In this document: positions 27,187-49,586 of the stretch, one piece after another
Position numbering within the stretch: position 1 is the stretch's first letter
Layout of the letters: every line of letters begins with the position of its first letter
Assembly: GCA_963704305.1 (NCBI GenBank)
Contig: OY969888.1
Location: 3,875,010-3,939,009, forward strand
Length of the DNA stretch: 64,000 bases
Source of the DNA: an uncultured Bacteroidota bacterium
Lineage (GTDB): Bacteria; Bacteroidota; Ignavibacteria; Kryptoniales; JAKASW01
Direction of reading: 5' to 3'
Notes under the pieces: generated by a model
The model's database searches: none
What the model was told of the DNA's origin: nothing
Seen by the model: the letters and a program-made list of their open reading frames with translations, nothing else
Position numbers and translations under genes: made by a program

Positions 27187-27262
27187 ACGCAAAATGGGGG
27201 AAGGCTTCAAGACCAGAGAACATGCTTACGTTGGGGTGCATTGATCGAAAGGAGGCATCCAA

Positions 27263-31665: not shown

Positions 31666-31684
31666 GCCGACGTCTTTCCTCTCG

Positions 31685-33160: not shown

Positions 33161-33249
33161 CTGAACTCTTCATGGAGTAAGTGTCAAAAGTCAGGCCGTA
33201 TTAGAGATTCTCCAACAGATCAAGTGAAAGTGTGCGACGTATTCCTTTT

Positions 33250-33930
33250 TTACTCTTCTATCTTCAGGACTACGAGTTTTCGCGGGCCATGTGCACCAAG
33301 CACCAGAACTTTCTCAATGTCAGCCGTTCGACTCGGCCCGGTGATGAAAACCATATTCTTCGTTTCCGCCGGATCCATTTTCTCGAACAGCTCAAATTGG
33401 TTGGCGACGATCTGGTTTTGAAAGACAACTGCAAAGGCATTGTCGCATAGAAAGTGAGGATAGGTTGTCCCGGTTTGCGCGTACGGAAAGACGAGCGAGC
33501 CGATGTCTGCTACCGCAAACGCAGGATGCACGACCGAAGCTTCCGTGATAGAATACTCTCTCTTGCGTCTTTCGTATGTCAGCACATCCGGCAATACGAT
33601 TTCCACGGCGCCGGATTTCTTTTGAATGATCTTGGCAACATCAGAACATATTTCTTCTTTGCTGATCCCTAAACGCCGGTACTTCGCCTCATTCAAAAAC
33701 TTCGACACAATCTCCGCAACTCCGTCGACGTTTTTTACAGAATAAAATTCTCCGGAGATCGCTATCAGTTCCTTTTCGAATTGAGACCAGAGCCCTGCTT
33801 TGTCCTTCGGCGTTATCGAATCAATTCCAATCTTGATCTTCCTCTCGATGCCGTCTTCGGCAGTACAGATCTCCGAAGGAGTTTTGAGGGCATCTTTTAT
33901 TCTGTTCAATATAGCTTCGCGGCTACTCAT
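33250..33930 (-). CDS. lutC: lactate utilisation protein C
   Basis: 226 aa starting MSSREAILNRIKDAL, LUD-domain-like, immediately downstream of lutB with a 4-nt overlap. Confidence 0.8.
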   Translation of the reverse strand: MSSREAILNRIKDALKTPSEICTAEDGIERKIKIGIDSITPKDKAGLWSQFEKELIAISGEFYSVKNVDGVAEIVSKFLNEAKYRRLGISKEEICSDVAKIIQKKSGAVEIVLPDVLTYERRKREYSITEASVVHPAFAVADIGSLVFPYAQTGTTYPHFLCDNAFAVVFQNQIVANQFELFEKMDPAETKNMVFITGPSRTADIEKVLVLGAHGPRKLVVLKIEE

Positions 33931-35327
33931 CGTACTGTGTCGTTCATTTCTTTGAACCGCTTTCTAAACCCTTTCGGATCGAATCGAGGAAACTCTCTTT
34001 GTTTGTAATATCCTGGAACCGGAAGGTGGACTTTCTTAGGCACGAGTCTCTGAAGCATTGCCGGTAACACGCTAGCGAACCGATACAACCCCGGTCGTGA
34101 AGCGAAAAAGGACCACAGCTTGAAACCGAACTTGTCCACCGGTTTTGCGTTGCCAGACTCGACCACACGGTTTCGAAGTGTGAGAAGATGGTTCGGCAAA
34201 TTTATCTTCACCGGGCAGACATCGTAACAGGCACCACACAAACTCGAAAGGAATGGAGAGTATCTTCCTTCCGATTCGCCGAGGTATTGTGGGATGAGCG
34301 TCGCGCCGATCGGACCCATGTAAACCCAGCCATAAGCATGTCCGCCTATCTGTTGATATACCGGGCAGACATTCAGACAGGCGCCGCAGCGGATACAAAA
34401 CAACGTCTCTCGCAGCTTAGGATCCCTGAGGACTTTTGTTCTTCCGTTATCAAGAAGGATTATGTGAACCTGCTCGGGGCCCTCGCCAATTTTTTCCCTG
34501 GTCGGTCCGCCGACAAAGTTAACGTAAGTTGATGACTTCTGTCCTGTCGCGCTCGCAGGAAGCAGTTTCAGAAAATACGGCAGCAACTTTACGTCAGGGA
34601 TAATCTTCTCCAGCCCCATGACGGCGACATGTATCTTCGGCAGACTCAGCGTATTGTGTGCGTTAGCCTCGTTCTCCACGATACAGAAGCTTCCCGATAA
34701 AGCAAACGCAAAGTTAACACCGGTTATTCCCATATCGGCTGAAAGAAATTTCTCGCGCAAAATCTTTCGTGCGATCTTCAGGAGCTCCACCGGCTCTTCG
34801 GTATACTCGACTCCAAGTGAGCGAGAAAAAAGCTTACCGATGTCCTTTCGGCTGAGATGCATCGCGGGAATTATCAGATGAGATGGAATCTGTTTGTTCA
34901 GCTGGACGATGTATTCGCCGAGGTCGGTCTCAAGTGCCTCGATTCCGTTCTGGGTGAGAAAATCATTTAAATGAATTTCTTCCGTGGTCAGCGATTTTGA
35001 TTTCACTACTTTTTTTACATCGTTCGCTTTAGCGATTCTAAGAATTATCGATCTGGCATCATCCGCATCTTCAGCCCAGTGGACTTTTATTCCATTTTTC
35101 GTGCAACTCTCTTCGAAGTGTTCGAGATAGATGTCAAGGTGCTCGACAACGTCTTTTTTTATCAAATGTGCTTTGGAGCGGAGCTCTTCCCAGTATGGAA
35201 TCTGATCAACTATTTTCTGCCGTGATTCTGTGGAGGAATCGGTCGCCTTGTCTACTGCCCGGCGCAAGTCCGTGTTCTGCAATGCATCATGGATCAGTTC
35301 TTTCGTCTGGAGCGGAGAAGTTTTCAT
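33927..35327 (-). CDS. lutB: lactate utilisation protein B (iron-sulfur)
   Basis: 466 aa with two ferredoxin-type clusters, CIRCGACLNVCP and LCGACYDVCP. Confidence 0.9.
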   Translation of the reverse strand: MKTSPLQTKELIHDALQNTDLRRAVDKATDSSTESRQKIVDQIPYWEELRSKAHLIKKDVVEHLDIYLEHFEESCTKNGIKVHWAEDADDARSIILRIAKANDVKKVVKSKSLTTEEIHLNDFLTQNGIEALETDLGEYIVQLNKQIPSHLIIPAMHLSRKDIGKLFSRSLGVEYTEEPVELLKIARKILREKFLSADMGITGVNFAFALSGSFCIVENEANAHNTLSLPKIHVAVMGLEKIIPDVKLLPYFLKLLPASATGQKSSTYVNFVGGPTREKIGEGPEQVHIILLDNGRTKVLRDPKLRETLFCIRCGACLNVCPVYQQIGGHAYGWVYMGPIGATLIPQYLGESEGRYSPFLSSLCGACYDVCPVKINLPNHLLTLRNRVVESGNAKPVDKFGFKLWSFFASRPGLYRFASVLPAMLQRLVPKKVHLPVPGYYKQREFPRFDPKGFRKRFKEMNDTVR

Positions 35328-35340
35328 CTATCGCCACGCA

Positions 35341-36084
35341 TTACAATCGTAAACTTTCCGCAAGCAGATCGGCGATGTGCATCGTCTTGGCATGCATCCT
35401 GTGTTTGCGCAGATAACCTTCAATGTTCATCAGGCAGCTCGAGTCGACACCGACGCAAAACTCCGCGCCGCTCTCTTCAACGTAGCGGCATTTGCGTTCG
35501 ACCATCGCGACCGACAGGTCTTCGAACTTATACGAGAACGTTCCACCAAACCCACAGCAGGTGTCTGGCTTCTCCATCTCGACGAACTCGATATCCTTGA
35601 TTCCGTTGATGAGCCGACGCGGCTGATCGTCAACACCGAGTACGCGAAGAGGATGACATGAATCATGGTACGTAACTCTGTGCCTGAATTCACCGCCGAC
35701 GTTTTCAATGTGCAACACATCGACTAAGAATTCGGAAAACTCGAACACTCTCCCCTCGAGCCGAGTCAATGCCGGCTTTAATTCGTCGCGTATATCGAGA
35801 TCGCGGTAGTATTCTTTCACAAACGAAACGCATGAGCCGGACGGTGCAACTACATACTCCTTGTCTTCAAACAATCGGATGAATTGCTCCGCTACAGGAA
35901 CGACTTCATTTCTGTAGCCTGAATTGAATGCCGGCTGGCCGCAGCAGGTCTGGTTCTCTACGTATTCCACTTCGACGCCGAGATGCCTGAGCACTTTCAC
36001 CATCGATATTCCGCTCTGCGGAAAGAGATGTTCGGTCAGACATGGAATGAAGAGAGCTACTTTCATCCTATTTCGGAGAGTCAC
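35341..36084 (-). CDS. lutA: lactate utilisation protein A ((Fe-S) oxidoreductase, CCG domains)
   Basis: 247 aa with duplicated CCG motifs, [13 protein letters not shown] and DTCCGFGG. Confidence 0.9.
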
Positions 36085-37893
36085 TGCTTATTGTAAAGTG
36101 GCCCGAAATTCTTGCAAGCTCTGAAGTCCGCGCCCTCGAGTTCTTCAGTTCCGAACGCGTTCCATGCGCTCGGCCTGTAAATCCTTTCCTGCGAAACGTT
36201 GTGCATGTTGACAGGTATCCTCAACATCGAAGCGAGCGTGATCAACTTGTCTCCGATATGTCCGTAGCTGATGGCACCGTGGTTCGCGCCCCAATTAGCC
36301 ATGACGGAATAAACATCCTTGAATGCGCCGCTTCCTGTGAGAATCGGAGCGAACCAGGTTGTGGGCCACGTCGGGTTCGTCCTGCGGTCCAGTATTCGAT
36401 TGACATCGCCGGGAAGGTCGACGGTATATCCTTCGGCGATCTGCAGGACAGGACCGAATCCCTTGACAAGATTCACTCGGCTCATCGTAACCGGCATTTC
36501 ACCTTCGGTGAGGAACTGTGAAGAGAAACCGCCGCCGCGGAAATATTCTCTTATCGCCGGGCACCATCGAGTCGCCTCCAAACATGCCGACACATCTTGC
36601 GAGGTGATTTCCCAGAACGGCTTCATTACCGGTTTACTCTTCGACCGCTGTTTGCCGGTTCCATCGAGAGTCGTGGAGCCGGAATTGATCAGATGAAGAA
36701 TTCCTCCGGCAGCTCTTCCCTTCAACGTTTTCCCACTCACTCTTTTCACCGCGGCGGGGCTCCAATATGTCCGGAACGTCTGAAAAAATCTGTGCGGTGT
36801 TTGTGAGAAGATGACCGAAGAGCATAGCAGTTCCGTTGAGACTGTCATTCTCGGTCGCCATGACGAACGGCTCCCGTATGCCGTTCCAGTCAAACGAAGA
36901 ATTAAGAATGGCTTCGAGGAAATCTCCGTTGGGGAAATGGTCGGTCCATTGCCGCTGTCCCTGGAATCCTGCGACGATCGCGTTATGACCGAGAGCTTCC
37001 TCACCGAAACCGAGTTCCACAAGTTTTGGATTGCCGACCATCAGATCACGCGCGATGATCGCCATCTTGACAACAGTTTCCCACTCATGTTCCTTTCGTT
37101 CACGAGAAGATTTTTCCGTGTTGAGGTCATCCCCTTCTTTGCAATGCTTCTTGGTCCATGCCAGCGCTTTATGATATTCTTCTTCATCGTAGATCTTTTC
37201 ATCGATGCGCCTGGCAAGCTCGGACATATCGACATATTCATTTCGCATTCCCAGGTAATCGTAGAAAAAATTGGAGTCAACAACCGAGCCCGCGATTCCC
37301 ATCGAGACGGAACCGATGGAGAGATAGGACTTCCCCTTCATTTCTGCGACAGCTAATCCGGCTTTCGCAAACCGGAGAAGTTTCTCCCTTACATCAACAG
37401 GAACTGTAGTGTCGTCCGCCTCCTGGACGTCTCTTCCATAAATACCGAACGTGGGCAAACCCTTTTGCGTGTATCCCGCAAGCGCCGCAGCAAGATACAC
37501 GGCGCCTGGGCGCTCCGTTCCGTTGAATCCCCACACTGCTTTCGGGACGAGCGGGTCGGAGTCCATCACTTCAGTTCCATAACACCAGCAAGGCGTCACT
37601 GTCAGCGAAACACCCACACCTTCGCGAGCAAAAAGCTCCGCGCATTCGGCAGCCTCGGCCGCCCGGCCTATTGTTGTCCGGGAAATGACACTTTCGACAG
37701 GCAATCCATTCGAATGGCGCAAGTTCTCGGTCAATAATTTCGCAGCCGCTCTCGCCATCGACATCGTCTGATTCTCGAGAGATTCCCGCACACCTTTCAT
37801 TCTTCCGTCAATGACAGGTCGAATACCTATCTTCGGCATGCTGCCGCGGAGCCGGTTCGTAGGTGGATTCATCTCAAAGACATCTTTGCTCAT
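36081..37893 (-). pseudogene. fucI: L-fucose isomerase split by an apparent 1-nt insertion (or sequencing error)
   Basis: Two overlapping track ORFs in different frames are together colinear with E. coli FucI. Frame A ends the homology at ...[11 protein letters not shown] and frame B resumes at [12 protein letters not shown]. The junction is GTT-C-CGG (extra C; gg at 36773-36774 on the plus strand). Span is 1813 nt, i.e. 3n+1. ATG at 37893 follows GGAG and the ackA stop. Confidence 0.9.
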
Positions 37894-37894
37894 C

Positions 37895-39109
37895 TCAGTC
37901 TCCTGACGTTTCTGACAATTGTAATTCTTCAATTACTTTTTTGGTTTCTCTCGCAACGACAAGCTCTTCGTTCGTCTCAAGAACAAGTGCCGAAATCTTC
38001 GAATCGGTTGCCGAAATAATCTGTTCGTTGCCGCGGTTCTTTATATTATCTAATTTCATTCCGAGGAATGCAAGCGACTTCAGCACATCTTCGCGCAGCT
38101 CGGAATCCCGTTGTCCTATCCCGCCGGTAAATGTGATTGCATCCAGGCCTTCCATGATCACGATGAATTCACCGATGTAGCGCTTTACATCGTAGATAAA
38201 CTTGTTGCGGGCAAGAAGCGCTCGCTTGTTTCCACCTCTGATTGCTTCTTTGATGTCCCGCATATCCGCAGATATTCCGGAGAGGCCGGCGAGACCGCCG
38301 TTCTTCGTACATTCCTTCAATGCATCGTCAAGGGATATGTTCTTCTTCTTCATGATGTAAGGAAACACAAATGGGTCGATGTCGCCGACACGCGTTCCCT
38401 GGATCAGTCCGGATTGCGGAGTAAATCCCATCGACGTGTCGACCGCCACGCCATTTTTGAATGCACACAGCGACGAAGAGCCTCCGAGATGACATGTGAT
38501 TACTTTATGATTGTCCCGTGGGAGACCAAGAATCTCGACGGTCTTGCCGGTGACGTAACGATGCGATGAGCCATGATAACCGTACTTGACGACGCCGCAT
38601 CTTTCGAACCACTCGTAAGGGGTTCCGTAAACTTTTGCATAATCCGGTGCGTTGATATGGAACCCAGGTTCAAAGACCCCCACTAACTTCGTATCGGGAA
38701 GGAGTTTTTTGAACATGTAGATGGCCGTCAGATATGGTGGGTTGTGCGCGGGAGCTAGGTCGCTGTAATCTTCCATTGCCTGCAAGACATCGTCGGTCAG
38801 CAGAACAGACCCATTCCTGTCTCCCGCCTGAATTGTCTTGAAGCCGATGCCGTCAATTTCATCAAGGCTCTCGAGAAGATCGAATTTCTTGTCGACAAGA
38901 ACCCGGAGAGCATGTTCAACGGCTTCACGATGCGAAGGGATATTCATCTCATCCGAAAATACTGTCTCTTCGCCGATCCGGTATGCGACAGCTGCCTTTT
39001 CACTGCCGACGCGTTCGGTATAACCGCGCGCTATCATCGTCTCGTCGGTCATATCGAGCAGCTGAAACTTAAAGCTGGTCGAACCGATATTGCAGACGAT
39101 GATCTTCAT
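37895..39109 (-). CDS. ackA: acetate/propionate-type acyl kinase
   Basis: [17 protein letters not shown]..., HLGGSSS, and [11 protein letters not shown]. Confidence 0.9.
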
Positions 39110-39157
39110 ATTCGTGTCGCGAGCTTAAGCCCGTGGCTGGATAAAATCATCCTCAAC

Positions 39158-39961
39158 CTAGTTGCTCTTGAGTTTCGCCAATACCTTTTCGGTGATTTCC
39201 CGGACATACTGCTCTGAGATCTCTTTCTTGCCGGAGCCGGATGAACTCATTGTCGTCGAAACAGGATGCTCATTACTCGGCATGGGTGTGGCGTCGCAGA
39301 CCGCTACACGTCCCTTGAGACCGTAGTTATCACGGAGCGCCATTAGTCTGTCTCTCTCGAATTCGGGCAAGACATTCAAATTCCCTAGTTGAATCGCATT
39401 CCACACAATATGAGCGGTATGATCGAGAGTTTCCATCCGATGATATGCCGTTAATAGATCAGGGCCAAGCGTGAGAGCTCCGTGGTTCTCCAGCAGAATC
39501 ACATCTGAGTTTTTGATGTGTTCTCTTATCGCATCAGGGATCTCCATGGTAGACGGCAAGCCGTATCTTGCAGTCGGGACTGCGCCGATCGTGAGCACGG
39601 CTTCAGGCAGCACACACTTATTCAGAGGTATTCCTGCGACGGCAAAGCTCGTCGCATATGGCGGATGTGCATGAACGACAGATTTTATGTCGGGGCGCTG
39701 CCTGTAGACCTCAAGATGCATCTTGAGCTCACTCGATGGTTTGTATTTCGGGTTCCCGGTAATGACGTTTCCATTTCTGTCAACCTTTATTATCATGTCA
39801 ATGGTCATGAAACCCTTGCTCACTCCGGTAGGCGTGGTGAGCACCTCTTTGTCGTTTAGCAAGACCGAAATGTTGCCATCATTTGCGGCAACATAACCTC
39901 GCATCCAAATTCTTTTTCCGATCTCGATAATTTCTTTCTTCAGTTCCCATTCCTGGTTCAT
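39158..39961 (-). CDS. class II aldolase (fuculose/rhamnulose-1-phosphate aldolase type) with C-terminal encapsulation-peptide-like extension
   Basis: Aldolase_II core with the His cluster VVHAHPPYAT. The ~45-aa C-terminal tail has a Ser/Gly linker followed by the amphipathic helix EISEQYVREITEKVLAKLK. Confidence 0.85.
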   Translation of the reverse strand: MNQEWELKKEIIEIGKRIWMRGYVAANDGNISVLLNDKEVLTTPTGVSKGFMTIDMIIKVDRNGNVITGNPKYKPSSELKMHLEVYRQRPDIKSVVHAHPPYATSFAVAGIPLNKCVLPEAVLTIGAVPTARYGLPSTMEIPDAIREHIKNSDVILLENHGALTLGPDLLTAYHRMETLDHTAHIVWNAIQLGNLNVLPEFERDRLMALRDNYGLKGRVAVCDATPMPSNEHPVSTTMSSSGSGKKEISEQYVREITEKVLAKLKSN

Positions 39962-39976
39962 CGCATAACTCCTGGT

Positions 39977-40546
39977 CTATATTAGTTCTCTTAATACTTC
40001 CTTATGCGGATTCTTGATTATCGCATAACCTGCAAGCATTCCATCTTGTTTAATATATTCGACGGCGGGCCTTGCTGCAGCTTCAAGTGCGTCGATGTCT
40101 CCGGTCATTACGACAAATCCTTTGCCGCCAACGGCCATCGCGACGTGGACTCGCAAGATCTCCAGCTCCGCCTCTTTGATAGCATAGTCGGCTGCTTTGA
40201 TTGCGGAGACGACGGAGAAAGTTTCAATCACCAATATCGCGTGGACTTCTTTGTCGGTGTTAATCTGCAGCGTGGTCGCGCCGGCGATCGCGGGAAAAAC
40301 GCGCGGATCTATGTTGGGGATGGCGGTCGCATTCACAACTGAAAACCCGCCGATTTCTTTCGCGACATTGATTGCCGTTTCAACATTCGCGGCATCACCG
40401 CGCACAATCATGAGATATTTTCCCGAACAAATTGTCCGAGCCACCATCTTCTCCACGTTCGCCGATTTCAAAACCTCGTCCTGCACCTGAAACCCTTTAT
40501 AAATACTGGCAAGCTCGATTATGCCAACCGCATTTCTAGTGTCCAT
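39977..40546 (-). CDS. BMC-T shell protein, tandem BMC domains, PduT-like
   Basis: 189 aa with two BMC repeats (AVGIIELASIYKG... and ILVIETFSVVSAIKAAD...). The motif ARTICSGKY (Cys40) aligns with the KTICPGKF Fe-S ligand region of PduT. Confidence 0.85.
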   Translation of the reverse strand: MDTRNAVGIIELASIYKGFQVQDEVLKSANVEKMVARTICSGKYLMIVRGDAANVETAINVAKEIGGFSVVNATAIPNIDPRVFPAIAGATTLQINTDKEVHAILVIETFSVVSAIKAADYAIKEAELEILRVHVAMAVGGKGFVVMTGDIDALEAAARPAVEYIKQDGMLAGYAIIKNPHKEVLRELI

Positions 40547-41844
40547 TAGTTCCTCTGGATGACTATTTCGTCTTTTGAAATTTCTCTCACGATCCCATCA
40601 ATGGAAGCGTGAATATTGCTCGATATTCTTCCAGTCGCTCTCCCGATCAGATCATATCTTTTCACCTGATCGCCCTGCTTGACGATGGCTACCGCAGGAG
40701 AGCCTAAATGCTGATTCAACGGCACCCGAACCGTAACGGGATTTATGTCCAACCTCTTCAGCGGACCTTCATCCTTGAACCTCAACACATCGAGTCTCTG
40801 CATGAGCTTCTGAGTTGGAACTCGGCGATAATCGTACATTGGATGAACCGATACCGGCCCTCCATTCCATTTTATGTTTTGCTCACGCAGTAACCGCTTC
40901 TCGATGACCGTCGCGCCCTTCGGATCCAAACCTTCCGGGCATGCATAAAGTGTGCACAGATTACATTCGCAGCAGGAGAAACTTCCCGGGTCGAGCATGG
41001 GAAAGTCCTCTCGGGTGAACATGCGGTTACGCATAGCGGTCTCCGGTCTTACCGGGTGACCTAACAAATATCTAGGGCAGAACTCCGTGCAGAAATTACA
41101 TTGATCGCATCCGGCCTTGGCTATTCGATCCACATCATGGTCTGTCTTGAATCTTTCGTACATGGTAACGCAGTAATGATCGGCAGGTAAAACGATGAGT
41201 GCTCCCGTGCGTTTCGAAACAACATTGTCGAGATTATACTCGAGTGCCCCCATCATCAAACCGCCCGATCGGACGACATAATCCTGCGTGGTGATGTTGA
41301 AATGAGACAGCACTTCAGAAAATGTAATCCCGACAGGAACCTTTATGGTGGCAGGTTCTTCAACTGCACCCGCGACCGAAATAAACTTGTCGACGACCGG
41401 TTTATTGATTCCGATATTATGAAGCGTCTCCACATTTTGAACGATGCATCCAACCGAAATCGGCAAATCACCCGGCTGGACAAGTCTACCCGTCGTCATG
41501 TAAATCAGCGTGATCTCATCTCCTGCCGGATAAACATCTTCAACCGGTACAATAGCGATGTCGTCGTTCACTTTCGAATTGAGAAGTTCAATTTCCTCCT
41601 GATGTTTTTCTTTTATGCCGATGATGCCAGAGCGTGCGCCGGTAATCTGCATGACGGCTTTGAGTCCTTTCAGAACTTCATCCGGATAATGCAAAAGCAT
41701 TTGCATGTCTTTATGAAGAAGAGGCTCACATTCGGCGGCATTCATTATCACGGTATCAGGATGGGAATCCAACTTGACGTGAGTCGGGAACCCGGCTCCT
41801 CCGGCACCGACAACGCCTAAACTCTCTATCTCAATCAATTCCAT
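40546..41844 (-). CDS. PduS/RnfC-like NAD(H)-binding Fe-S flavoprotein
   Basis: GAGGAGFPTHVKL nucleotide/flavin motif, and two 4Fe-4S motifs (CDQCNFCTEFCP and CCECNLCTLYACP). Confidence 0.8.
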   Translation of the reverse strand: MELIEIESLGVVGAGGAGFPTHVKLDSHPDTVIMNAAECEPLLHKDMQMLLHYPDEVLKGLKAVMQITGARSGIIGIKEKHQEEIELLNSKVNDDIAIVPVEDVYPAGDEITLIYMTTGRLVQPGDLPISVGCIVQNVETLHNIGINKPVVDKFISVAGAVEEPATIKVPVGITFSEVLSHFNITTQDYVVRSGGLMMGALEYNLDNVVSKRTGALIVLPADHYCVTMYERFKTDHDVDRIAKAGCDQCNFCTEFCPRYLLGHPVRPETAMRNRMFTREDFPMLDPGSFSCCECNLCTLYACPEGLDPKGATVIEKRLLREQNIKWNGGPVSVHPMYDYRRVPTQKLMQRLDVLRFKDEGPLKRLDINPVTVRVPLNQHLGSPAVAIVKQGDQVKRYDLIGRATGRISSNIHASIDGIVREISKDEIVIQRN

Positions 41845-41860
41845 GACATATCGTCGCTAA

Positions 41861-42139
41861 TTAATTATCCCGATAATCGATCGAATCGACAATTGCAATG
41901 ATGATGGTTCTTATCGGAGCAAGTTCGAGGTTGAACAATGTCTTTGCGACGCCCGGCGCCCCTCCGCAGACAACAGTATCACCAATCCCTGCTCCTACAG
42001 AATCTACGGCAACCCATTCGTCCCCTTTGGGTGTTCCATCAGGAAGAATCGGCTGCACGACAAAGAGGATCTTTCCCGCATATGCCTCATGCTTGGTAGA
42101 CGAGACCACTTTCTTTTCCACTCGCGCCAGGAACATCAC
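41861..42139 (-). CDS. BMC-P pentameric vertex protein (EutN/CcmL family), paralog 4
   Basis: 92 aa: MMFLARVEKKVVSSTKHEAYAGKILFVVQP...AVDSVGAGIGDTV...IIAIVDSI. Confidence 0.85.
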   Translation of the reverse strand: MMFLARVEKKVVSSTKHEAYAGKILFVVQPILPDGTPKGDEWVAVDSVGAGIGDTVVCGGAPGVAKTLFNLELAPIRTIIIAIVDSIDYRDN

Positions 42140-42399
42140 ACGACCTCATCCGCCAGAGCAACTACACTTGCGTTTACCGGAGCGAAGCCTGTGTCAAACG
42201 CTTGCGATGCATCGGTGCTTGTTACAAACACAATTCTCTCTCCTGAGGCGGCAATATTCTGCGGATCGGCGACAACGATCGGATTTCCGACTTTCTTACC
42301 GACAGAAGAAACAGGTTGCACGATGCATAACCTGCAACCGTCTAGCTCGTTTACTTTTCTCGAAGACCAGACGACACCTATGACAACGCCCAATTTCAT
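42136..42399 (-). CDS. BMC-P pentameric vertex protein (EutN/CcmL family), paralog 3
   Basis: 87 aa: MKLGVVIGVVWSSRKVNELDGCRLCIVQP...ASVVALADEV. Confidence 0.85.
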   Translation of the reverse strand: MKLGVVIGVVWSSRKVNELDGCRLCIVQPVSSVGKKVGNPIVVADPQNIAASGERIVFVTSTDASQAFDTGFAPVNASVVALADEVV

Positions 42400-42401
42400 G
42401 A

Positions 42402-42683
42402 TCAGCTTTTGACTCCGTACGTCATCTGGACATCATCTACGATCGCCATGATCACCGCATCAATGGGAGCATTTTTAGTTGCGGCGGTCATCCGAGCCGA
42501 CGAGCCATAAGAAAGGAGGACAAAACTCCCTTCGCCTGCCTGTACCGCATCCACGGCGACGTGATACGAGCTCAGCGGATTGCCTTCATGGTCAACCTCC
42601 TTACACAGGAGAAGTTTCTTCCCGTTCAGGTTTTCATCCTTCTGGGTCGATACGACTGTCCCAACAACTTTTGCGAAAATCAT
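42402..42683 (-). CDS. BMC-P pentameric vertex protein (EutN/CcmL family), paralog 2
   Basis: 93 aa: MIFAKVVGTVVSTQKDENLNGKKLLLCKEV...AVDAVQAGEGSFVLL...DAVIMAIVDDV. Confidence 0.85.
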   Translation of the reverse strand: MIFAKVVGTVVSTQKDENLNGKKLLLCKEVDHEGNPLSSYHVAVDAVQAGEGSFVLLSYGSSARMTAATKNAPIDAVIMAIVDDVQMTYGVKS

Positions 42684-42692
42684 TTTACCGGC

Positions 42693-42968
42693 CTATTTGT
42701 TAAATGATTTTTCCAATTCATCGACCGGACGAGGAATGACGAGCTGAGATACGACCTCGCCTACTTTCGATGCAGCATTCGCCGCCGCATCGATCGCCGA
42801 GCGAACTGCGGCGACATCGCCTTCAACTACAAACGACACGTAACCGCTGCCGACCTGTCGCCACTCGACCAACTCGACATTGGCCGATTTAACGGCCGCA
42901 TCCGCACCCTGTATTAGAGGGGCAAAGCCTTTCGTCTCGAGAATTCCGATTGCGTTTTTCACTGTCAT
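42693..42968 (-). CDS. BMC-H hexameric shell protein
   Basis: The ATG at 42968 is preceded by GAGGAG. Sequence [34 protein letters not shown]...GDVAAVRSAIDAA...VIPRP is the canonical PduA/EutM pattern. Confidence 0.9.
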   Translation of the reverse strand: MTVKNAIGILETKGFAPLIQGADAAVKSANVELVEWRQVGSGYVSFVVEGDVAAVRSAIDAAANAASKVGEVVSQLVIPRPVDELEKSFNK

Positions 42969-43002
42969 TTTATTTCTCCTCAATTCATTTAGAAAATCTC
43001 TG

Positions 43003-44430
43003 TTATGCGAACCTCAGTGCACCGTGTGTCATGACGCGGCGCTTGCGGACAAAATTCAGAGGCGTACAGATTCCTTCGCCGGTCGGAGTGGCGATCGTGT
43101 GTGAGAAATATCCTTCGCCAAGGTCGCCTCCGTTGCCGCGCAGAGTGCCTCCGTTGATCGTATGAACATCACAGTCCAGAACTCTGGTGTATCTTGTCGC
43201 GCGGACGATATCGTTAGTAAAAATGCTGGCGGTATGTTTGAACCTATGTTCCGCCTTCAAGCACGCCTGCAGTCCATCTTCAAAGTCCTTCACCCTGACG
43301 ACTGGAATGCACGACGTCATCTGCTCGGCGACGACCCAGGGGTGATTCCTCTCCGTTTCTCCGAACAACAACGGAACGTCATCGGATATTTCAAGACCTA
43401 TTGCCTTCGCCAGCACATCGGCATTGCGACCAGTGTAATCGCGTTTGATGAGCCAGTGCTTGCCGGAGAGCTCGAGAGCAATTTTGCCAAGCCTGTCCAT
43501 CTGCTCTCTACTCAACCTGACGTTGCCGGCTTTCGACATTTCATTCATGAAAGAATCAAAAACCGACTCAACTACGAAGATTTCTTTTTCAGCAATGCAC
43601 AAAATATTGTTATCAAAGCTGGCACTCTGCGTGATCTCAGTGGCGGCTAATTTCAAATCCGCAGTTTCATCGACCAGCACTGGAGGATTACCAGGTCCAG
43701 CTGCGATGACTTTCTTCGGATAGGTCATCGCCAAGTCAACTACCGCAGGCCCGCCGGTGACCGACAGAAGATCAACTTTCTCATGGCCGAATAAAGTTTT
43801 GACGGCATCGAGGGTTGGTTCCGCAACGCATGTGACGACATTCTTAGGTGCACTCGCATCAACCATGTATTGATTCGCAAGCTGAATGACACGCGAGCTC
43901 ACTTTCTTAGCAGACGGGTGCGGACTGAAAGCTATCGTGTTGCCGGCACAGAGTTGTATGATAATGTTGTTGATGATAGTCGGACCAGGATGTGTGCTCG
44001 GGGCTATATTGCCGATGACTCCAAACGGAACATACACATCAAGGGCAAGGCCGTTCTTTCCAGACCACGCTTTCGGCTGGAGATACTCGACGCCCGGGCT
44101 ATGCTTGGCGGCGTTGACGTATTTGGCAATCTTATGCTCGACGCGGCCCATCCCGGTTTCTTCGACTGTCATTGCCGCGAGCTCTTCTTTGTGATCCATC
44201 GCCATTTGCCTAACGGCATCTGTAATCTTCTTCCTGCACTCCATGCTCCGTTCCCTGAACGACTGGAATGCCTCATATGCCGCCTCGACTGCGTCATTCA
44301 TGTCTTCAAACACGCCCCAGTCACCTTTTTCGCTCTGCCTTGAAAGGTCGTGGCCATTACCGACTTGCGCCACTACTCTAGCGACTACGGTTCGTACAAC
44401 TTCGGTCAACTGTGCGTCGTCTATGTCCAC
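43003..44430 (-). CDS. CoA-acylating aldehyde dehydrogenase (PduP/EutE-like) with N-terminal encapsulation peptide
   Basis: Catalytic Cys context FDNNILCIAEKE. The N-terminal amphipathic helix AQLTEVVRTVVARVVAQV is followed by a linker before the ALDH core. Confidence 0.9.
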   Translation of the reverse strand: MDIDDAQLTEVVRTVVARVVAQVGNGHDLSRQSEKGDWGVFEDMNDAVEAAYEAFQSFRERSMECRKKITDAVRQMAMDHKEELAAMTVEETGMGRVEHKIAKYVNAAKHSPGVEYLQPKAWSGKNGLALDVYVPFGVIGNIAPSTHPGPTIINNIIIQLCAGNTIAFSPHPSAKKVSSRVIQLANQYMVDASAPKNVVTCVAEPTLDAVKTLFGHEKVDLLSVTGGPAVVDLAMTYPKKVIAAGPGNPPVLVDETADLKLAATEITQSASFDNNILCIAEKEIFVVESVFDSFMNEMSKAGNVRLSREQMDRLGKIALELSGKHWLIKRDYTGRNADVLAKAIGLEISDDVPLLFGETERNHPWVVAEQMTSCIPVVRVKDFEDGLQACLKAEHRFKHTASIFTNDIVRATRYTRVLDCDVHTINGGTLRGNGGDLGEGYFSHTIATPTGEGICTPLNFVRKRRVMTHGALRFA

Positions 44431-44446
44431 GTTACTCCTATGCCAT

Positions 44447-44755
44447 CTACTTTGTCAGTTTCTTTTCCAAGTTCAACGGCTCAATCGGGAACTTCGGAAG
44501 AAGTTTTTCGGACGGCCGTGGAATGACAACTTCGGCGGCGACATTTCCGACACTTGATGCTGCCTGTACGCCGGCTTCGACAGCCGCGTTAACCGCTGCA
44601 ACGTCTCCGCGAATGACGATGCCGACTCTTCCCCCACCAATCTTGATCCATTTTCCCAGTTTCACGTTGGCAGATTTCACCGCCGCATCAGCTCCTTGAA
44701 TTGCAGCAGTAAATCCGACAGTCTCAATGACTCCCAATGCGTCCACCATTTTCAC
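44447..44755 (-). CDS. BMC-H hexameric shell protein
   Basis: [33 protein letters not shown]...[14 protein letters not shown]...VIPRP. Confidence 0.9.
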
Positions 44756-45039
44756 TTCTCCTCTTTTTCGATGCCGATTAATGCGAATACTTCTTCGTGC
44801 GCCGACGGTATGATATTGGTGCTTACCAGCTCACCGACCTTGGCGGCTGCATCGGCACCCGCTTCAACTGACGAGCGTACTGCACCGACCTCTCCGCGGA
44901 CCAATGCCGTAACATACCCTCCACCAATCTCGACTCGCTTCACGAATTCCACATTCGCCGTCTTGAGCATAGCATCGATGGCATGGATCGCTCCGGCGTT
45001 ACCGCGCGTTTCTACAAAACCTAAAGCCACTCGCGACAT
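44752..45039 (-). CDS. BMC-H hexameric shell protein (divergent)
   Basis: [30 protein letters not shown]...[14 protein letters not shown]...IIPSAH. Confidence 0.85.
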
Positions 45040-45050
45040 TTTTTCTCCTT

Positions 45051-45368
45051 CTAGTTTGATTTATGACCGCTTCTAAGAATTAATCTTCTTTTCGAAATAA
45101 CATCTCTCGCCCCAGGGGTAATGACCGTTCCTTTCGGAAGGACAATTTCACGAACATTCGAATCGAGCGAGAGAAGATGATTCTCCGTAAGAACGGGGCT
45201 CCTGTAATTTTTCAAATCAATTATTTCACAGAGCTGCTTCGGGGCAGATGCAAGATTCGTCGACTTCTCCACTGCCGGAGATGAGCTCACTTTTATTCCA
45301 TGTTTCGAAAGCTCAGCAACCACTTCTTTGACTATAATTTCAATCAGCTTTTCGATTGGCACTTCCAC
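45051..45368 (-). CDS. small BMC-associated protein of unknown function with N-terminal encapsulation-peptide-like helix
   Basis: 105 aa. Has the N-terminal amphipathic helix PIEKLIEIIVKEVVAELSKHG, a Ser/Pro linker, then VLTENHLLSL...IVLPKGTVITPGARDVISKRRLIL. That second motif resembles a short domain I recall at the N-terminus of EutQ-type BMC accessory proteins (low certainty). Confidence 0.5.
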   Translation of the reverse strand: MEVPIEKLIEIIVKEVVAELSKHGIKVSSSPAVEKSTNLASAPKQLCEIIDLKNYRSPVLTENHLLSLDSNVREIVLPKGTVITPGARDVISKRRLILRSGHKSN

Positions 45369-45374
45369 GATGAA

Positions 45375-45674
45375 TCAGCCTCGAGTCGATTTCTTGTAGA
45401 CATTTTTTTTGCCCGAAGAGACCGCATCCACAATTCCAACTATAGTATTGTCAGTGCAGACATTCCTCGTCGTGCTCGTCAACCTTGCGGAGGAAGAAGA
45501 ACAAAGGAGAACGACATCTCCATCGCCCGAATTCACGGTGTCAATGCAGGCCGCAGTTTTCCCGGTATCCGTCAGCCTCTCATCGAGATACTGTACCACC
45601 AGAATTCTTAGGCCATCCACATTCCCTTCCTTCCGAGTCGACACTACTTTTCCGATTACCCTTCCTAGTTTCAT
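45375..45674 (-). CDS. BMC-P pentameric vertex protein (EutN/CcmL family), paralog 1
   Basis: 99 aa: MKLGRVIGKVVSTRKEGNVDGLRILVVQYL...DTVNSGDGDVVLL...IVGIVDAV. Confidence 0.85.
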   Translation of the reverse strand: MKLGRVIGKVVSTRKEGNVDGLRILVVQYLDERLTDTGKTAACIDTVNSGDGDVVLLCSSSSARLTSTTRNVCTDNTIVGIVDAVSSGKKNVYKKSTRG

Positions 45675-45678
45675 CGTC

Positions 45679-46431
45679 TCACATCTTTCCTATGAACTCG
45701 GCGTAAGCTTCTTCCCGGATGTTTGCGGCATTTGCATCGTCGGTATCCAAATGGATCTGCAATTTCCAATTATCGTTGGTCCTTATCAGCACATTTTCGA
45801 AAACGGCACTCTTCTCTCCTCCCAGTCGAACTTTACAACGGTCGCCATTTTTCAATCCGAACATCGACGCCTCTGCATTCGACATGTGAATATGCCTACT
45901 GGCGATGATGGCACACTTCTCACAGTAGATTGAGCCGTTCGGACCAACCAGCGTCAATGGCGCCGCCTCGTCGATCGAGCCGGAGTTCGCAACCGGCGGG
46001 TCGATGCCTAAGAAAATTGAATCGGTAAGTGACAACTCGACCTGATCGTATTTTCTCAGTGGCCCCAGTATTCGGACATTAGCGATGCTCCGAAGTTTCG
46101 GACCGACTATCGTCACCATATATTGTGTTGCAAACTCTCCTGGCTGGTACAACGGTCGCATCGGCTCAAACCTAGCTCCTTTACCGAACAGAGCATGGAA
46201 CGTCTCCGCAGTGAGATGTATGTGCCGATTGGAAACACCGACAGGTATCAAAGGATATTGGGAATTGGCTCCCTGGAGAGACGCTGTTGATCTTGGATCG
46301 GACCGAATAATGCTCTGAACTTCTTTGACGATGAACTCGACCAATTCCTCGTCAGAATAGCCTCGGTGTGTTCTGCATTCACACTCTTGCGCCTTATCCA
46401 AGAGCGTCTCTCCGTCAGTTTCTTGTTTCAT
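45679..46431 (-). CDS. pduL: phosphotransacylase PduL with N-terminal encapsulation peptide
   Basis: Duplicated PduL motifs, VGVSNRHIHL and IASRHIHMS. N-terminal extension contains the helix EELVEFIVKEVQSIIR. Confidence 0.9.
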   Translation of the reverse strand: MKQETDGETLLDKAQECECRTHRGYSDEELVEFIVKEVQSIIRSDPRSTASLQGANSQYPLIPVGVSNRHIHLTAETFHALFGKGARFEPMRPLYQPGEFATQYMVTIVGPKLRSIANVRILGPLRKYDQVELSLTDSIFLGIDPPVANSGSIDEAAPLTLVGPNGSIYCEKCAIIASRHIHMSNAEASMFGLKNGDRCKVRLGGEKSAVFENVLIRTNDNWKLQIHLDTDDANAANIREEAYAEFIGKM

Positions 46432-47201
46432 TTCGCGACCAGCACCTCCACTCCGGCTTTACGGAAATTTTCAATTTCTTTCTTCGGAGCCGACGAGTCA
46501 GTGATGATTCTAGAAATCTGGCTTATGTCTGCAAAAGCAGACAAGCCGGTCTGCCCGAATTTGGTGCCGTCGACCAATATGGTAACTTCTCCGACCCTGC
46601 TTATGATTGCTTTTTTCAATTCAACTTCGATCAAGTGCGCGTCGGTCAGACCCTTCTTCAATGAAATTCCCAAAGCCCCGAGAAACGCTTTACCAATTGT
46701 GAGATTGTTCAGGAAATCGCTTGCCGGAAGTCCGGTGATCGAACCCGACGCATGTCTCAGGTATCCTCCGGGCAGAAGGACGTTGATGTTCTGACAGCCC
46801 ATGAGCTCGATCGCGGTCCAGATACCGCATGGAATTACCGTCACGTCTCTCAACTCCTCACGCTTACGCAGAGCATGGGCTAATGCCAGCGCAGTAGTAC
46901 TTGAGTCGAGCAGGATAGAGTCGAGGGAATCCACAAATGTTGCCCCGAGTCTTCCGATCCTCTGTTTCTTCTGTGAGTTGAGACTCTTTCTTGTCTGGAA
47001 ATTGTACTCCTGTCTCGTGCGCTCTTCGACCAGCTGTGCGCCGCCATGCATCCTCGCTATCTTGCCGAGCTTGTCCAGACTATTCAGGTCGGCTCTTACC
47101 GTTACCTCCGTAACTTTCAGCAGGTTGCTCAGATCCTTGACTGTCATGGTCCCTTTAGCGGCCAACAACTCAAGTATTTTTTGATGTCGCATCTGCACCA
47201 T
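46428..47201 (-). CDS. DeoR-family transcriptional regulator
   Basis: N-terminal HTH (RHQKILELLAAKGTMTVKDLSNLLKVTEVTVRADL) plus a DeoR C-terminal sugar-phosphate sensor domain. It is the first gene of the BMC operon. Confidence 0.9.
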   Translation of the reverse strand: MVQMRHQKILELLAAKGTMTVKDLSNLLKVTEVTVRADLNSLDKLGKIARMHGGAQLVEERTRQEYNFQTRKSLNSQKKQRIGRLGATFVDSLDSILLDSSTTALALAHALRKREELRDVTVIPCGIWTAIELMGCQNINVLLPGGYLRHASGSITGLPASDFLNNLTIGKAFLGALGISLKKGLTDAHLIEVELKKAIISRVGEVTILVDGTKFGQTGLSAFADISQISRIITDSSAPKKEIENFRKAGVEVLVAK

Positions 47202-47228
47202 AAGACAATAGCTCTTAACTCGAAGCCA

Positions 47229-47280
47229 ATATAAAACCCCTTTCGTTTACTTGCAATATTCTTTCGACTTTTTTCGAAAA
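47229..47280 (-). promoter_or_regulatory. candidate promoter of the deoR-BMC operon with overlapping TTTCG(A) repeat operator
   Basis: Minus strand reads TTGCAA (47257-47252), 17-nt spacer, TATATT (47234-47229). The palindrome TTTCGA-N6-TCGAAA (47263-47280) lies just upstream, and further CTTTCG copies sit inside and around the spacer. Confidence 0.4.
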
Positions 47281-47510
47281 TATTTCTTTTATTTTTGTGA
47301 GCACGCGAAATTGAGCCATTTAGAAGGGTTGTGGATAAGAGGGATGCTTGCGTGAACCGGGAGTGGGCCTAATTGAAATCTTTCACCAATGTCTTTCGCC
47401 TCAGATACAATGTTCTGCCGTGCGACGTGACCCGGTATTACGATTATTTGCCGGTAAAGAAATGCAACAGAGACCAATTCCCCGAAATGTGAGAACCCTG
47501 TTCCCTGACC

Positions 47511-47744
47511 TTACCCAGCAGACGCTTTCTTGAATGGCCAATATCTAATGCAATATACCAGCCCTAAGATCAGGAGTATCGCCCCCCACCACAAATCGGG
47601 ATGCAACTCACTCAACGCGATTTGTCTTACAGTAGAATTGAACAAATAATATATTCCCGCTCCGATGATTAGCACTCCGTATGCAAACAACAATGCCCCG
47701 ATGAAGAACCATATTTCAATGCGTTCAGTCCTTTCCATGATCAC
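47511..47744 (-). CDS. small two-helix membrane protein downstream of the symporter
   Basis: 77 aa with two hydrophobic helices. Its start lies 3 nt after the symporter stop. Confidence 0.5.
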   Translation of the reverse strand: MIMERTERIEIWFFIGALLFAYGVLIIGAGIYYLFNSTVRQIALSELHPDLWWGAILLILGLVYCIRYWPFKKASAG

Positions 47745-47747
47745 CTC

Positions 47748-49586
47748 TCACCAGAATACAATGTTAACGGCAATAAGCACGACCAGCACGACTGCCGCCC
47801 AAAATTTCGGATGTTTGTACCACGGACAGGGTCCTTCATTCGGAATGCGGGTGAGCCCATAAACTAAGTCCTTCAGTTCCTCGTCAGATTTCGGCTTTGT
47901 AAATACGCTGACTAGAACTGTAACACCCATGCAAACTAGGAGTGACCAAAGTGCGCTATACATGTTCACCGCCATGTCTTTTGCCAGCGGTGAGGTAGCG
48001 ATGTACTGTACGTGCGCAGGGTTGAGCTGAGTCGGATCGAAATAGCCGGGAAAGACATGCACATAAATAAATTCGCCGACCGAGGTTAAGATCCCGGCAA
48101 GGAATCCCCAGAAACCTGCCGCAGGCGTCGCACGCTTCCACAACATCCCGAGTATCACGACCCCGAACAGCGGAATGATAAAGAACATGACGAGGACCTG
48201 AAGATAAATCAGAATGTTGCTAAACAATTTTGCGCCATAAGCTGTCATGATTGCGATGAAGACACCGATGATTGAACACCAGCGCCCCATTTTGACATAA
48301 TGTGCATCGCTTGCATTCTTGTTGATGAGAGGACGGTACACGTCATACGTCCACACAGTTGCAAATGCGCTAACATTTCCCGCCATGCCGGACATGAATC
48401 CTGCAATCATTCCGGTGATTCCCAACCCGAGAAGTCCGGGACTCAGGTAGCGTGCCATCATCAGAGGAAGCACTTCGTTGTAACTATGACCCCCTGTTGC
48501 TTGGGCAACGCTCTCCGGCACCAAAGTGATTCCAGATTTCTGCGTCAACACAGCTAATCCTAACAATCCGGGAACCGTTACGATAAGGGGAACCATCATC
48601 TTCAAGGCAGCCCCGATGAGTGTTCCATTTTGCGCTGTCCTCAGACTCTTCGCGGCCATGACACGCTGCACCTGTAGAAAATCCGTGCACCAGTAGCCGA
48701 ACGCGACTGCAAGTCCCAAACCGAATACCATCCCTGTCCAGTGCATTCCCATTGGGTTATTTGCTGGCGAGCCGAGATTAGCCCAGAGACTCGTAAAGTT
48801 CTCGCCCGGATGCTGGGCATTGATCGACGCGATCATTTTGCTCCAACCACCCGCCTCGATGATACCTAGGATTGGAATGAGCAGTGTGCCTAACCAAATC
48901 AGGAAGAACTGCATTACTTCGTTAAACACCGCTGAAAGCAATCCACCCAGCGCCACATAGACTGCAACAGTGATTGAAGAAATCCATATGCACAGGTCGA
49001 AATTCCATCCAAGAAGCATCTGCATGACCTTTGCCATCGCAAACATGTTCACACCGCAGACGAGGACAGTCATCAAAGTGAACGAGATACCTGCGAGAGA
49101 TCGGCTCGCTTCTCCGTAACGCAGTTTCAGATAGCCCGGCACCGAATGTGTCTTAGAGATATAATAGAATGGCATCATCACAACCGCGAGGAATAGGATT
49201 GCCGGAATAGCACCAATTAGATATGCATGTGCACCAAGCATTCCATACTGGTACGCCATCGCCGACCAGCCCATAGTTTCTAGCGAACTGAGGTTTGCCG
49301 AGATGAAGCTTAGACCGGCAATCCAGGCGGTCATTTTCCGACCAGCCATAAAGAACTCTTCGCCGGTGGCTGTGTATTTCTTGAGATAAAAACCGATCCC
49401 CAATACCACAACGAAATAAAGAAGGATGATGGTTAGGTCGACCGGCGTCAGTGAAAGGAGGTGGGATGAAATACCGGCGCGTGATTCTGCAAATGCAGGC
49501 TGCGCAAGGAATGAAAGCAATAGCGAGGCGATTGCCAGAGGTTTCAAAAGTCCCAGGTTTGTTTCCTTTGTTCCGTTCAAATTCAC
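47748..49586 (-). CDS. sodium:solute symporter family transporter (SGLT-like), candidate deoxyhexose importer
   Basis: 612 aa with about 14 hydrophobic helices and SSS-type motifs (GRKMTAWIAGLSFISANLSS). Lies directly upstream of the deoR-BMC operon on the same strand. Confidence 0.85.
   Translation of the reverse strand: MNLNGTKETNLGLLKPLAIASLLLSFLAQPAFAESRAGISSHLLSLTPVDLTIILLYFVVVLGIGFYLKKYTATGEEFFMAGRKMTAWIAGLSFISANLSSLETMGWSAMAYQYGMLGAHAYLIGAIPAILFLAVVMMPFYYISKTHSVPGYLKLRYGEASRSLAGISFTLMTVLVCGVNMFAMAKVMQMLLGWNFDLCIWISSITVAVYVALGGLLSAVFNEVMQFFLIWLGTLLIPILGIIEAGGWSKMIASINAQHPGENFTSLWANLGSPANNPMGMHWTGMVFGLGLAVAFGYWCTDFLQVQRVMAAKSLRTAQNGTLIGAALKMMVPLIVTVPGLLGLAVLTQKSGITLVPESVAQATGGHSYNEVLPLMMARYLSPGLLGLGITGMIAGFMSGMAGNVSAFATVWTYDVYRPLINKNASDAHYVKMGRWCSIIGVFIAIMTAYGAKLFSNILIYLQVLVMFFIIPLFGVVILGMLWKRATPAAGFWGFLAGILTSVGEFIYVHVFPGYFDPTQLNPAHVQYIATSPLAKDMAVNMYSALWSLLVCMGVTVLVSVFTKPKSDEELKDLVYGLTRIPNEGPCPWYKHPKFWAAVVLVVLIAVNIVFW

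Follow-up and report, generated by a model that had tools for sequence, protein, structure and literature searches.

A PduS/PduT-type gene pair as the probable NAD+-recycling module of a MIC4 microcompartment locus with fucose and rhamnose genes

How does a bacterial microcompartment (BMC) that oxidizes an aldehyde within its shell regenerate NAD+ if no alcohol dehydrogenase is encoded beside it? The question is raised by a 64,000-nucleotide stretch of DNA, here called the window, from an uncultured Bacteroidota bacterium of the Kryptoniales (GenBank assembly GCA_963704305.1, contig OY969888.1, positions 3,875,010 to 3,939,009). The region 39977-41844 of the window consists of exactly two adjacent minus-strand open reading frames (ORFs). 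Their domains and an alignment with PduT of known structure identify them as a PduS-type flavoprotein and a PduT-type shell protein, as a preliminary description of this DNA had proposed. PduS has been renamed metabolosome NADH dehydrogenase (MNdh) and its partner, a single-layer tandem BMC shell protein, BMC-T^SE (Sutter 2024, PNAS, PMC11626177); the proteins of the window are called MNdh and BMC-T below. Probably, the pair serves a MIC4 microcompartment that degrades L-fucose and L-rhamnose as its MNdh/BMC-T^SE module for cofactor recycling.

The pair is located mid-way in a tightly packed 20-gene minus-strand operon. In the direction of transcription the genes encode a transporter, a DeoR regulator, a PduL-type phosphotransacylase (PTAC), a BMC-P pentamer protein, a 105-aa protein and two BMC-H hexamer proteins, followed by an acylating aldehyde dehydrogenase, a further BMC-H, three BMC-P and the PduS-like and PduT-like proteins, and finally by a class II aldolase, an acetate-family kinase, FucI, LutA, LutB, LutC, an FGGY kinase and RhaA. 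The stop codon of the MNdh gene and the start codon of the BMC-T gene overlap by 1 nt (TAATG), and 15-16 nt separate the pair from the flanking genes; the two genes are translationally coupled. The aldehyde dehydrogenase gene lies 1.2 kb upstream of the pair.

Pfam searches of MNdh detected Complex1_51K (PF01512), which binds flavin mononucleotide (FMN) and NADH, at residues 6-144 (E 3.6e-44), a Fer4_17 dicluster (E 1.1e-11) and, at the C-terminus, the beta-sandwich/barrel-sandwich domain RnfC_N at residues 369-427 (E 1.1e-14). SLBB (PF10531) reached 19.9 bits, below its cutoff of 27, in a weak match confined to residues 155-181. Alignment with the RnfC structure 7zc6_C (E 4.8e-48) yielded two segments in permuted order: MNdh 6-303 corresponds to RnfC 127-415 and MNdh 369-427 to RnfC 33-84. 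Such a C-terminal permutation of RnfC is the hallmark of PduS-type proteins (Sutter 2024, PMC11626177). The glycine-rich GAGGAGFPT noticed in the preliminary description is present at residues 13-21. Two CxxCxxCxxxCP motifs had also been reported, and this is correct for the first, CDQCNFCTEFCP (C246/249/252/256), but not for the second, CCECNLCTLYACP (C291/294/297/302), which reads CxxCxxCxxxxCP and is one residue longer owing to a last spacer of four residues. Neither GAGGAGFP nor NAAECEP nor any of the eight Fe-S cysteines varies among 47 MNdh homologues with 36-78% identity to the window protein. Inspection of the termini revealed no encapsulation peptide on MNdh.

BMC-T contains two BMC domains (PF00936, Pfam E 7.3e-30). 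Citrobacter freundii PduT (3pac) can be aligned with it from end to end (phmmer E 1.7e-36), as can 3n79 over the full length, and its identity to PduT over that length is 36-38%. Cys40, in the sequence TICSGKY, stands opposite Cys38 of PduT, the cluster ligand in 'ktiCpgk', so that the correspondence claimed earlier for this cysteine was borne out. In an AlphaFold2 model built from an alignment of 42 sequences (predicted local distance difference test score 83.4, predicted template-modelling (TM) score 0.79), strands 33-40 and 43-50 pair into a beta-hairpin that has Cys40 at its tip, and the top Foldseek match of this model is again 3pac (TM 0.83/0.85).

Conservation of the pore was followed in about 160 BMC-T homologues overall. 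All 44 clade ORFs that extend across the pore loop retain the pore cysteine, as do 120/120 of the closest database homologues. The clade shares the motif (T/S)ICSGK(Y/F), with CSGK in the window, in the 44 ORFs derived from loci L001-L076 and in all 120 database proteins; five outgroup proteins from Firmicute and Vibrio loci have CPGK. Compared with CP(G/S)K, which has been called the universal pore motif (Sutter 2024, PMC11626177), Cys, Gly and Lys are invariant in the clade and Pro is replaced by Ser. A BMC-T protein identical to that of the window occurs in a second assembly (L083 3586-4388, a contig of Logan ERR10755942). The aldolase of that locus is called as two genes (169 and 92 aa) as against one intact 267-aa ORF in the window, which suggests assembly-level indel noise in data of this lineage.

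Are there other candidates for NAD+ regeneration, or for a partner of PduS in B12 metabolism, close to the pair? Pfam scans of 57 ORFs of the window found no Fe- or Zn-dependent alcohol dehydrogenase families and no diol dehydratase, ethanolamine ammonia-lyase, adenosyltransferase or B12-binding families. These negatives cover the 64-kb window and not the whole genome; within it, the earlier statement that both a B12 enzyme and an alcohol dehydrogenase are missing is upheld. One NAD-dependent oxidoreductase alone is encoded nearby, at 24925-25836, and a score of 445 bits for TIGR01763 (cutoff 352) marks it as a bona fide malate dehydrogenase. Its gene is found about 3.3 kb past the operon, with a beta-lactamase-family gene and a tRNA-Ser between. 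This Ldh_1-family protein was considered as an NAD+ recycler of the kind proposed for the Planctomycetes/Verrucomicrobia fucose/rhamnose microcompartment (PVM) and was rejected, being a housekeeping malate dehydrogenase equivalog that is encoded outside the operon and absent from 79/79 related loci.

These 79 loci were collected by a search with the aldehyde dehydrogenase, keeping one genome per species, and were annotated by six-frame ORF calling and phmmer comparison with the window proteins and with E. coli FucO, AdhP, EutB and EutC. The closest aldehyde dehydrogenase belongs to a Candidatus Kryptoniota metagenome-assembled genome (MAG; 84%), followed by those of Ignavibacteriales (about 80%). 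None of the 79 loci has an EutB- or EutC-like gene by phmmer. Fifty loci, including the window, cover the junction from BMC-P to aldolase at which the pair is found. Both genes of the pair are present in 40/50, neither in 10/50 and a single one in 0/50; in other words, 80% of loci have the pair within the main operon.

For alcohol dehydrogenases, the relatives were surveyed by phmmer with FucO and AdhP and by Pfam on 30 of the 233 unassigned neighbouring ORFs. The detection works, because FucO-like genes were recovered in distant Firmicute and Vibrio loci. No alcohol dehydrogenase-like gene occurs within 10 kb in 47/50 loci, and the three loci that have one (L019, L020 and L029) all carry the pair. 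Among the 30 unassigned neighbouring ORFs, Pfam identified no alcohol dehydrogenase in the pair-lacking loci. The preliminary description had predicted that the pair and an in-locus alcohol dehydrogenase would anticorrelate. Such an anticorrelation was not seen; the alcohol dehydrogenase is absent with or without the pair. The genes in the three exceptional loci encode Zn-dependent enzymes, are located upstream beside rhaA (L019 2620-3726, L020 2596-3798 and L029 2087-4429) and may specify cytoplasmic lactaldehyde reductases; the ORF in L029 is 781 aa long, with the alcohol dehydrogenase domains in its C-terminal half.

The ten loci without the pair (L022, L024, L025, L026, L031, L053, L055, L057, L059 and L061) include those of Melioribacter and Rosettibacter isolates. 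Their junctions are clean, with 0-200 bp between the BMC-P and aldolase genes. When the aldehyde dehydrogenases were arranged by neighbour joining, without bootstrap, the deep branches of the tree all carried the pair and pair-less loci appeared in at least three places. This suggests that the pair is ancestral and has been lost repeatedly and cleanly. Lineages without the pair in cis may be supplied in trans, since the PduT-type protein MROS_2475 of Melioribacter roseus is listed in a separate shell-only satellite locus of type FRAG1, and 24/57 FRAG1 loci have a PduS/PduT pair (Sutter 2021 catalogue). Two features of single relatives were also noted. The KSB1 locus L047 has two extra ORFs without a Pfam match, one of 187 aa among the BMC-P genes and one of 261 aa between BMC-T and aldolase (8604; 11956-12738), and URO-D family genes (uroporphyrinogen decarboxylase/methyltransferase-like) are found downstream in L029 (18408-19460) and L036 (20352-21422).

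The window locus is assigned to the MIC4 type and not to the Pdu- or PVM-type microcompartments. MIC4 was defined as a "metabolosome with incomplete core" (Sutter 2021, PMC8217296 Supplementary Data 2) because no alcohol dehydrogenase is present in the locus. The type comprises an aldolase (pfam00596), an aldehyde dehydrogenase, a PTAC and an acetate kinase (pfam00871) as enzymes and, for the shell, no more than three BMC-H together with four BMC-P, three of them in a triplet; a PduS homologue is described next to a BMC-T of PduT type whose pore cysteine is conserved (PMC8217296). The window matches this description in its core enzymes, in the N-terminal peptide on the aldehyde dehydrogenase, in the lack of an alcohol dehydrogenase and, by counts, in its shell of three BMC-H, four BMC-P (triplet plus one) and one BMC-T. 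The 15 catalogued MIC4 loci come from Ignavibacteria, KSB1, Calditrichaeota and Bacteroidetes and have no assigned substrate (PMC8217296). Trees of the catalogue label Candidatus KSB1 bacterium 4484_87 and Melioribacter roseus as MIC4 (Sutter 2021). The former is locus L060 of our set, with the gene order of the window and with 64% identity in the aldehyde dehydrogenase and 58% in MNdh; the latter is represented by the MAG loci L008 and L061. In contrast to the published MIC4 description, the window and its relatives extend into fucI, rhaA, sugar kinase, fucosidase and lutABC genes, and these flanking deoxyhexose and lactate genes therefore provide a likely substrate for MIC4.

The resemblance to PVM, compared here by the feature list of Axen 2014, is considerable. 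Both have a class II aldolase, a lactaldehyde-oxidizing aldehyde dehydrogenase, a PduL-type PTAC, an acetate-family kinase and a DeoR regulator, and in both the BMC-P genes outnumber the BMC-H genes. However, PVM loci contain a lactate/malate-dehydrogenase-family gene that was proposed as NAD+ recycler (Axen 2014), and the window operon has none. Orthologous loci are filed under MIC4, whose aldehyde dehydrogenase is closest to MUF2/MUF3 (PMC8217296), and the MNdh pair of PVM resides in satellite loci in 18/20 cases (PMC11626177) but in the main operon here. An assignment of the window locus as PVM or PVM-like was replaced by MIC4 in accordance with the 2021 catalogue. With the Pdu system of Salmonella and Citrobacter the window shares homologous PduS and PduT proteins, including the cysteine that serves PduT as cluster ligand, but substrate and pathway differ and no PduCDE, PduGH, PduO or PduQ was detected by Pfam in the 57 window ORFs.

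The function of such pairs outside B12 metabolism has been addressed before. PduS/PduT homologues of B12-free compartments were suggested to shuttle electrons across the shell (Axen 2014). In the later MNdh/BMC-T^SE model electrons are exported via the shell, NAD+ is regenerated and no aldehyde is wasted as alcohol; 361 loci have this pair and no alcohol dehydrogenase (PMC11626177). Activity assays, kinetics, electron paramagnetic resonance (EPR), voltammetry and modelling of the pair from the GRM1 locus of C. botulinum support electron export (PMC11626177). The window shares the four-domain MNdh architecture with the permuted RnfC domain, although with a weak match for SLBB, and has immediately adjacent genes, a co-occurring aldehyde dehydrogenase and the pore cysteine, and neither a B12 enzyme nor an alcohol dehydrogenase. 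It departs from the published module by CSGK in place of CP(G/S)K and by the four-residue last spacer in the second Fe-S motif. The preliminary description had put forward that NADH is reoxidized by PduS, that electrons leave through the PduT cluster and that no aldehyde is diverted. This equals the 2024 model and is supported by the conservation of the sequence features it would require; the model, already published, was rediscovered independently and is sound but not original.

Applied to the window, the pathway would begin with an isomerase and a kinase converting the deoxyhexose to fuculose- or rhamnulose-1-phosphate, from which the encapsulated class II aldolase would release L-lactaldehyde into the lumen. 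The encapsulated acylating aldehyde dehydrogenase would oxidize lactaldehyde to lactyl-CoA with reduction of NAD+ to NADH, the PduL-type phosphotransacylase would form lactyl-phosphate, and the acetate-family kinase would yield lactate and ATP, with LutABC presumably oxidizing lactate to pyruvate. The PduS-type flavoprotein, probably docked on the PduT-type trimer from the lumenal side, would reoxidize the NADH that is trapped in the lumen, with electrons passing from FMN to two 4Fe-4S clusters and on to a predicted 4Fe-4S cluster at the trimer pore. This cluster, held by three copies of Cys40, could hand the electrons to a cytoplasmic acceptor, and reduction of lactaldehyde to 1,2-propanediol would then be unnecessary. 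That NADH is oxidized, that clusters are bound and in which direction electrons flow we adopt from published work on homologues, which the window proteins are expected to resemble; we infer the substrate, the lumenal location, the acceptor and the exclusivity of this recycling route. Lactate as the main product would fit with the presence of ackA and lutABC in the same operon. Since lutABC belongs to the operon, lactate can be regarded as an intended intermediate toward pyruvate.

Several observations weigh against this interpretation. A ferredoxin or flavodoxin gene was not found in the operon. The ten loci without the pair also have no in-locus alcohol dehydrogenase, the BMC-P gene being directly followed by the aldolase gene, and therefore the pair is either dispensable or supplied from elsewhere. 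The CSGK motif is a small, clade-specific difference from CP(G/S)K, and cluster binding by this variant is a prediction. The biochemistry was performed with the C. botulinum GRM1 homologue, and the Firmicute MNdh proteins of our comparison set are just 36-39% identical to that of the window; the function is carried over by analogy. The substrate was assigned from the gene neighbourhood, and fucI is frameshifted in the window. Finally, the analysis extends over 64 kb, and an unlinked alcohol dehydrogenase, tagged or untagged, could be encoded beyond it.

This last point leads to the main rival, namely that NAD+ is regenerated mainly by an unlinked alcohol dehydrogenase or lactaldehyde reductase and that the pair is a redundant or condition-specific second route. 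Both recycling systems coexist in Salmonella Pdu and in 1,725 loci of the 2024 survey (PMC11626177), the Zn-dependent enzymes beside rhaA in L019, L020 and L029 accompany the pair, ten relatives do without the pair in cis, and the visible part of the genome is 64 kb. On the other hand, none of the 57 window ORFs belongs to an alcohol dehydrogenase family, 47/50 relatives are devoid of an alcohol dehydrogenase-like gene within 10 kb, and the label 'incomplete core' of the catalogue reflects just this absence for MIC4 as a whole (PMC8217296). We consider the unlinked enzyme an unlikely main route. Far less probable still is a role in cobalamin reduction for a B12-dependent enzyme. This is the classical function of PduS, historically assigned as corrin reductase in Salmonella and Citrobacter (cited in Axen 2014), but the window, by Pfam in 57 ORFs, lacks any B12-dependent enzyme, adenosyltransferase or B12-binding domain, EutB/EutC-like genes are missing from all 79 loci, the pathway enzymes of the locus need no B12, and the PduS fold has been argued to leave little room for binding of cobalamin (Sutter 2024, PMC11626177).

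A different possibility is that MNdh passes its electrons directly to O2 or to a small lumenal acceptor, BMC-T being purely structural or its cluster serving as redox sensor or gate. The purified complex used O2 as acceptor in vitro, the site of O2 reduction not being resolved (PMC11626177), and many BMC-T proteins are purely structural (SPU1 and MIC7 descriptions, PMC8217296). This explanation appears improbable in view of the strict co-inheritance of the two genes, with 0 discordant cases in 50 loci, their translational coupling, the pore cysteine that is invariant in the clade homologues spanning the loop, and the EPR and voltammetry data in favour of electrons taking a linear route to the shell cluster (PMC11626177). 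The clean losses of the pair, at least three by the aldehyde dehydrogenase tree, and the frameshifted fucI of the window could also be taken to mean that the pair is a decaying remnant without current function in this locus. Yet both ORFs are intact and 58-78% identical to clade orthologues in several phyla, every cofactor ligand is invariant and translational coupling has been preserved, and we regard decay as very improbable. Export of electrons by MNdh through BMC-T is, in our opinion, the probable function of the pair.

The features of the operon are compiled in Table 1 in the order of transcription.

Table 1. Features of the MIC4 operon in the window and the evidence for their assignment
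Feature	Position	Strand	Basis
Sodium:solute symporter (SSF)-family transporter, upstream of regulator	47748-49586	-	Pfam SSF E 2.3e-49
DeoR-family transcriptional regulator, operon head	46428-47201	-	Pfam HTH_DeoR + DeoRC
PduL-type phosphotransacylase	45679-46431	-	Pfam PTAC E 3.7e-67, residues 63-238; NF011652 above cutoff
Fourth BMC-P pentamer gene	45375-45674	-	Pfam EutN_CcmL E 1.5e-23
Conserved 105-aa protein, N-terminal encapsulation-peptide-like helix	45051-45368	-	Synteny
Two BMC-H hexamer genes	44447-44755, 44752-45039	-	Pfam BMC each
CoA-acylating aldehyde dehydrogenase, NADH producer	43003-44430	-	Pfam Aldedh; NCBIfam NF011927 549 bits, above cutoff
BMC-H hexamer shell protein	42693-42983	-	Pfam BMC E 2e-28
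BMC-P triplet (three consecutive pentamer genes)	41861-42139, 42136-42399, 42402-42683	-	Pfam EutN_CcmL each
PduS-type metabolosome NADH dehydrogenase (MNdh), 432 aa	40546-41844	-	Pfam domains + RnfC alignment
PduT-type single-layer tandem BMC shell protein (BMC-T^SE), 189 aa, pore Cys40 in TICSGKY	39977-40546	-	Two BMC domains + PduT alignment
Class II aldolase, signature enzyme (fuculose-/rhamnulose-1-phosphate), 267 aa	39158-39961	-	Pfam Aldolase_II E 8.9e-48, residues 10-186
Acetate/propionate-family kinase (lactyl-phosphate to lactate + ATP)	37895-39109	-	Pfam Acetate_kinase E 1.8e-113; TIGR00016 above cutoff
L-fucose isomerase gene (fucI), two overlapping ORFs	36081-37932	-	Pfam Fucose_iso_N1/N2 and Fucose_iso_C on separate ORFs
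lutA, lutB, lutC, Fe-S lactate-oxidizing complex (lactate to pyruvate)	33250-36084	-	Pfam CCG; LUD_dom + Fer4 + LutB_C; LUD_dom
FGGY-family sugar kinase	31685-33160	-	Pfam FGGY_N/FGGY_C
L-rhamnose isomerase (rhaA)	30403-31749	-	Pfam RhaA E 9.9e-181

Amphipathic helices resembling encapsulation peptides are found at the N-termini of the aldehyde dehydrogenase, the PTAC and the 105-aa protein and at the aldolase's C-terminus, but neither on MNdh nor on the kinase. That of the aldehyde dehydrogenase, LTEVVRTVVARVVAQV, is amphipathic, the PTAC has an N-terminal extension of about 60 aa, and the aldolase carries a C-terminal extension of about 50 aa, EQYVREITEKVLAKL, ending in an amphipathic helix. 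The acetate-family kinase has no extension and is presumably cytoplasmic. The 105-aa protein had no Pfam match, and a search of PDB sequences returned chance-level matches only; TIGR02536 'eut_hyp' was matched weakly, below its cutoff, with its C-terminal half. Practically all related loci that extend over this site have the protein there, whether the pair is present or absent.

The fucI gene is split by a +1 insertion near 36774. E. coli FucI matches two frames by tblastn, and relative to the intact orthologue of L075 the alignment shows a 1-base gap; intact orthologues were also found in L010, L011 and L076. The split marks either a pseudogene or a mistake in the assembly. Unlike fucI, rhaA and the sugar kinase gene are intact. 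The inclusion of lutABC within a microcompartment sugar operon was observed in the window as well as in many relatives.

At the operon end, 29158-30216 encodes a class A beta-lactamase-family protein. Between it and the malate dehydrogenase gene, the stretch 26800-29100 (about 2.3 kb) contains short ORFs only, none with a Pfam match, and is adjoined by the tRNA-Ser gene at 26683-26775 on the plus strand. Scans of 29000-48000 yielded 21 sigma-70 promoter sites compared with 19.1 in shuffled sequence, using a consensus that may not suit the host phylum, and 15 intrinsic terminators compared with 19.4. With counts no higher than in shuffled sequence, the scans are therefore uninformative for the operon boundaries.

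Both the locus type (2021) and the electron-exporting role of the pair (2024) have been described already, and the window is an ordinary new example. The finding as stated adds nothing to the field, since the MIC4 pair was catalogued in 2021 and its function in NAD+ recycling was proposed and tested in 2024. A wider reading would combine these results for the MIC4 loci of Ignavibacteriota, Kryptoniota, Calditrichota and KSB1. The in-operon pair would be ancestral and the sole NAD+ recycler, the organelle a fully oxidative, electron-exporting lactaldehyde-to-lactate module that feeds LutABC and respiration, CSGK might tune the cluster potential or the acceptor specificity, and Melioribacter, Rosettibacter and other lineages with the pair deleted might borrow a FRAG1 copy. 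Taken together, these propositions are tentative, and it is rather doubtful that all of them hold.

The modest value of the locus and its relatives lies in comparative data on the poorly sampled MIC4 type, which is extended from 15 catalogue loci to about 65 in the present set. The gains are the location of the pair within the main operon in most loci, the strict joint inheritance and loss of its two genes, the CSGK departure from a "universal" motif and a likely substrate. Lineages with and without the pair would offer a natural experiment on the effect of the module on the propanediol-to-lactate ratio.

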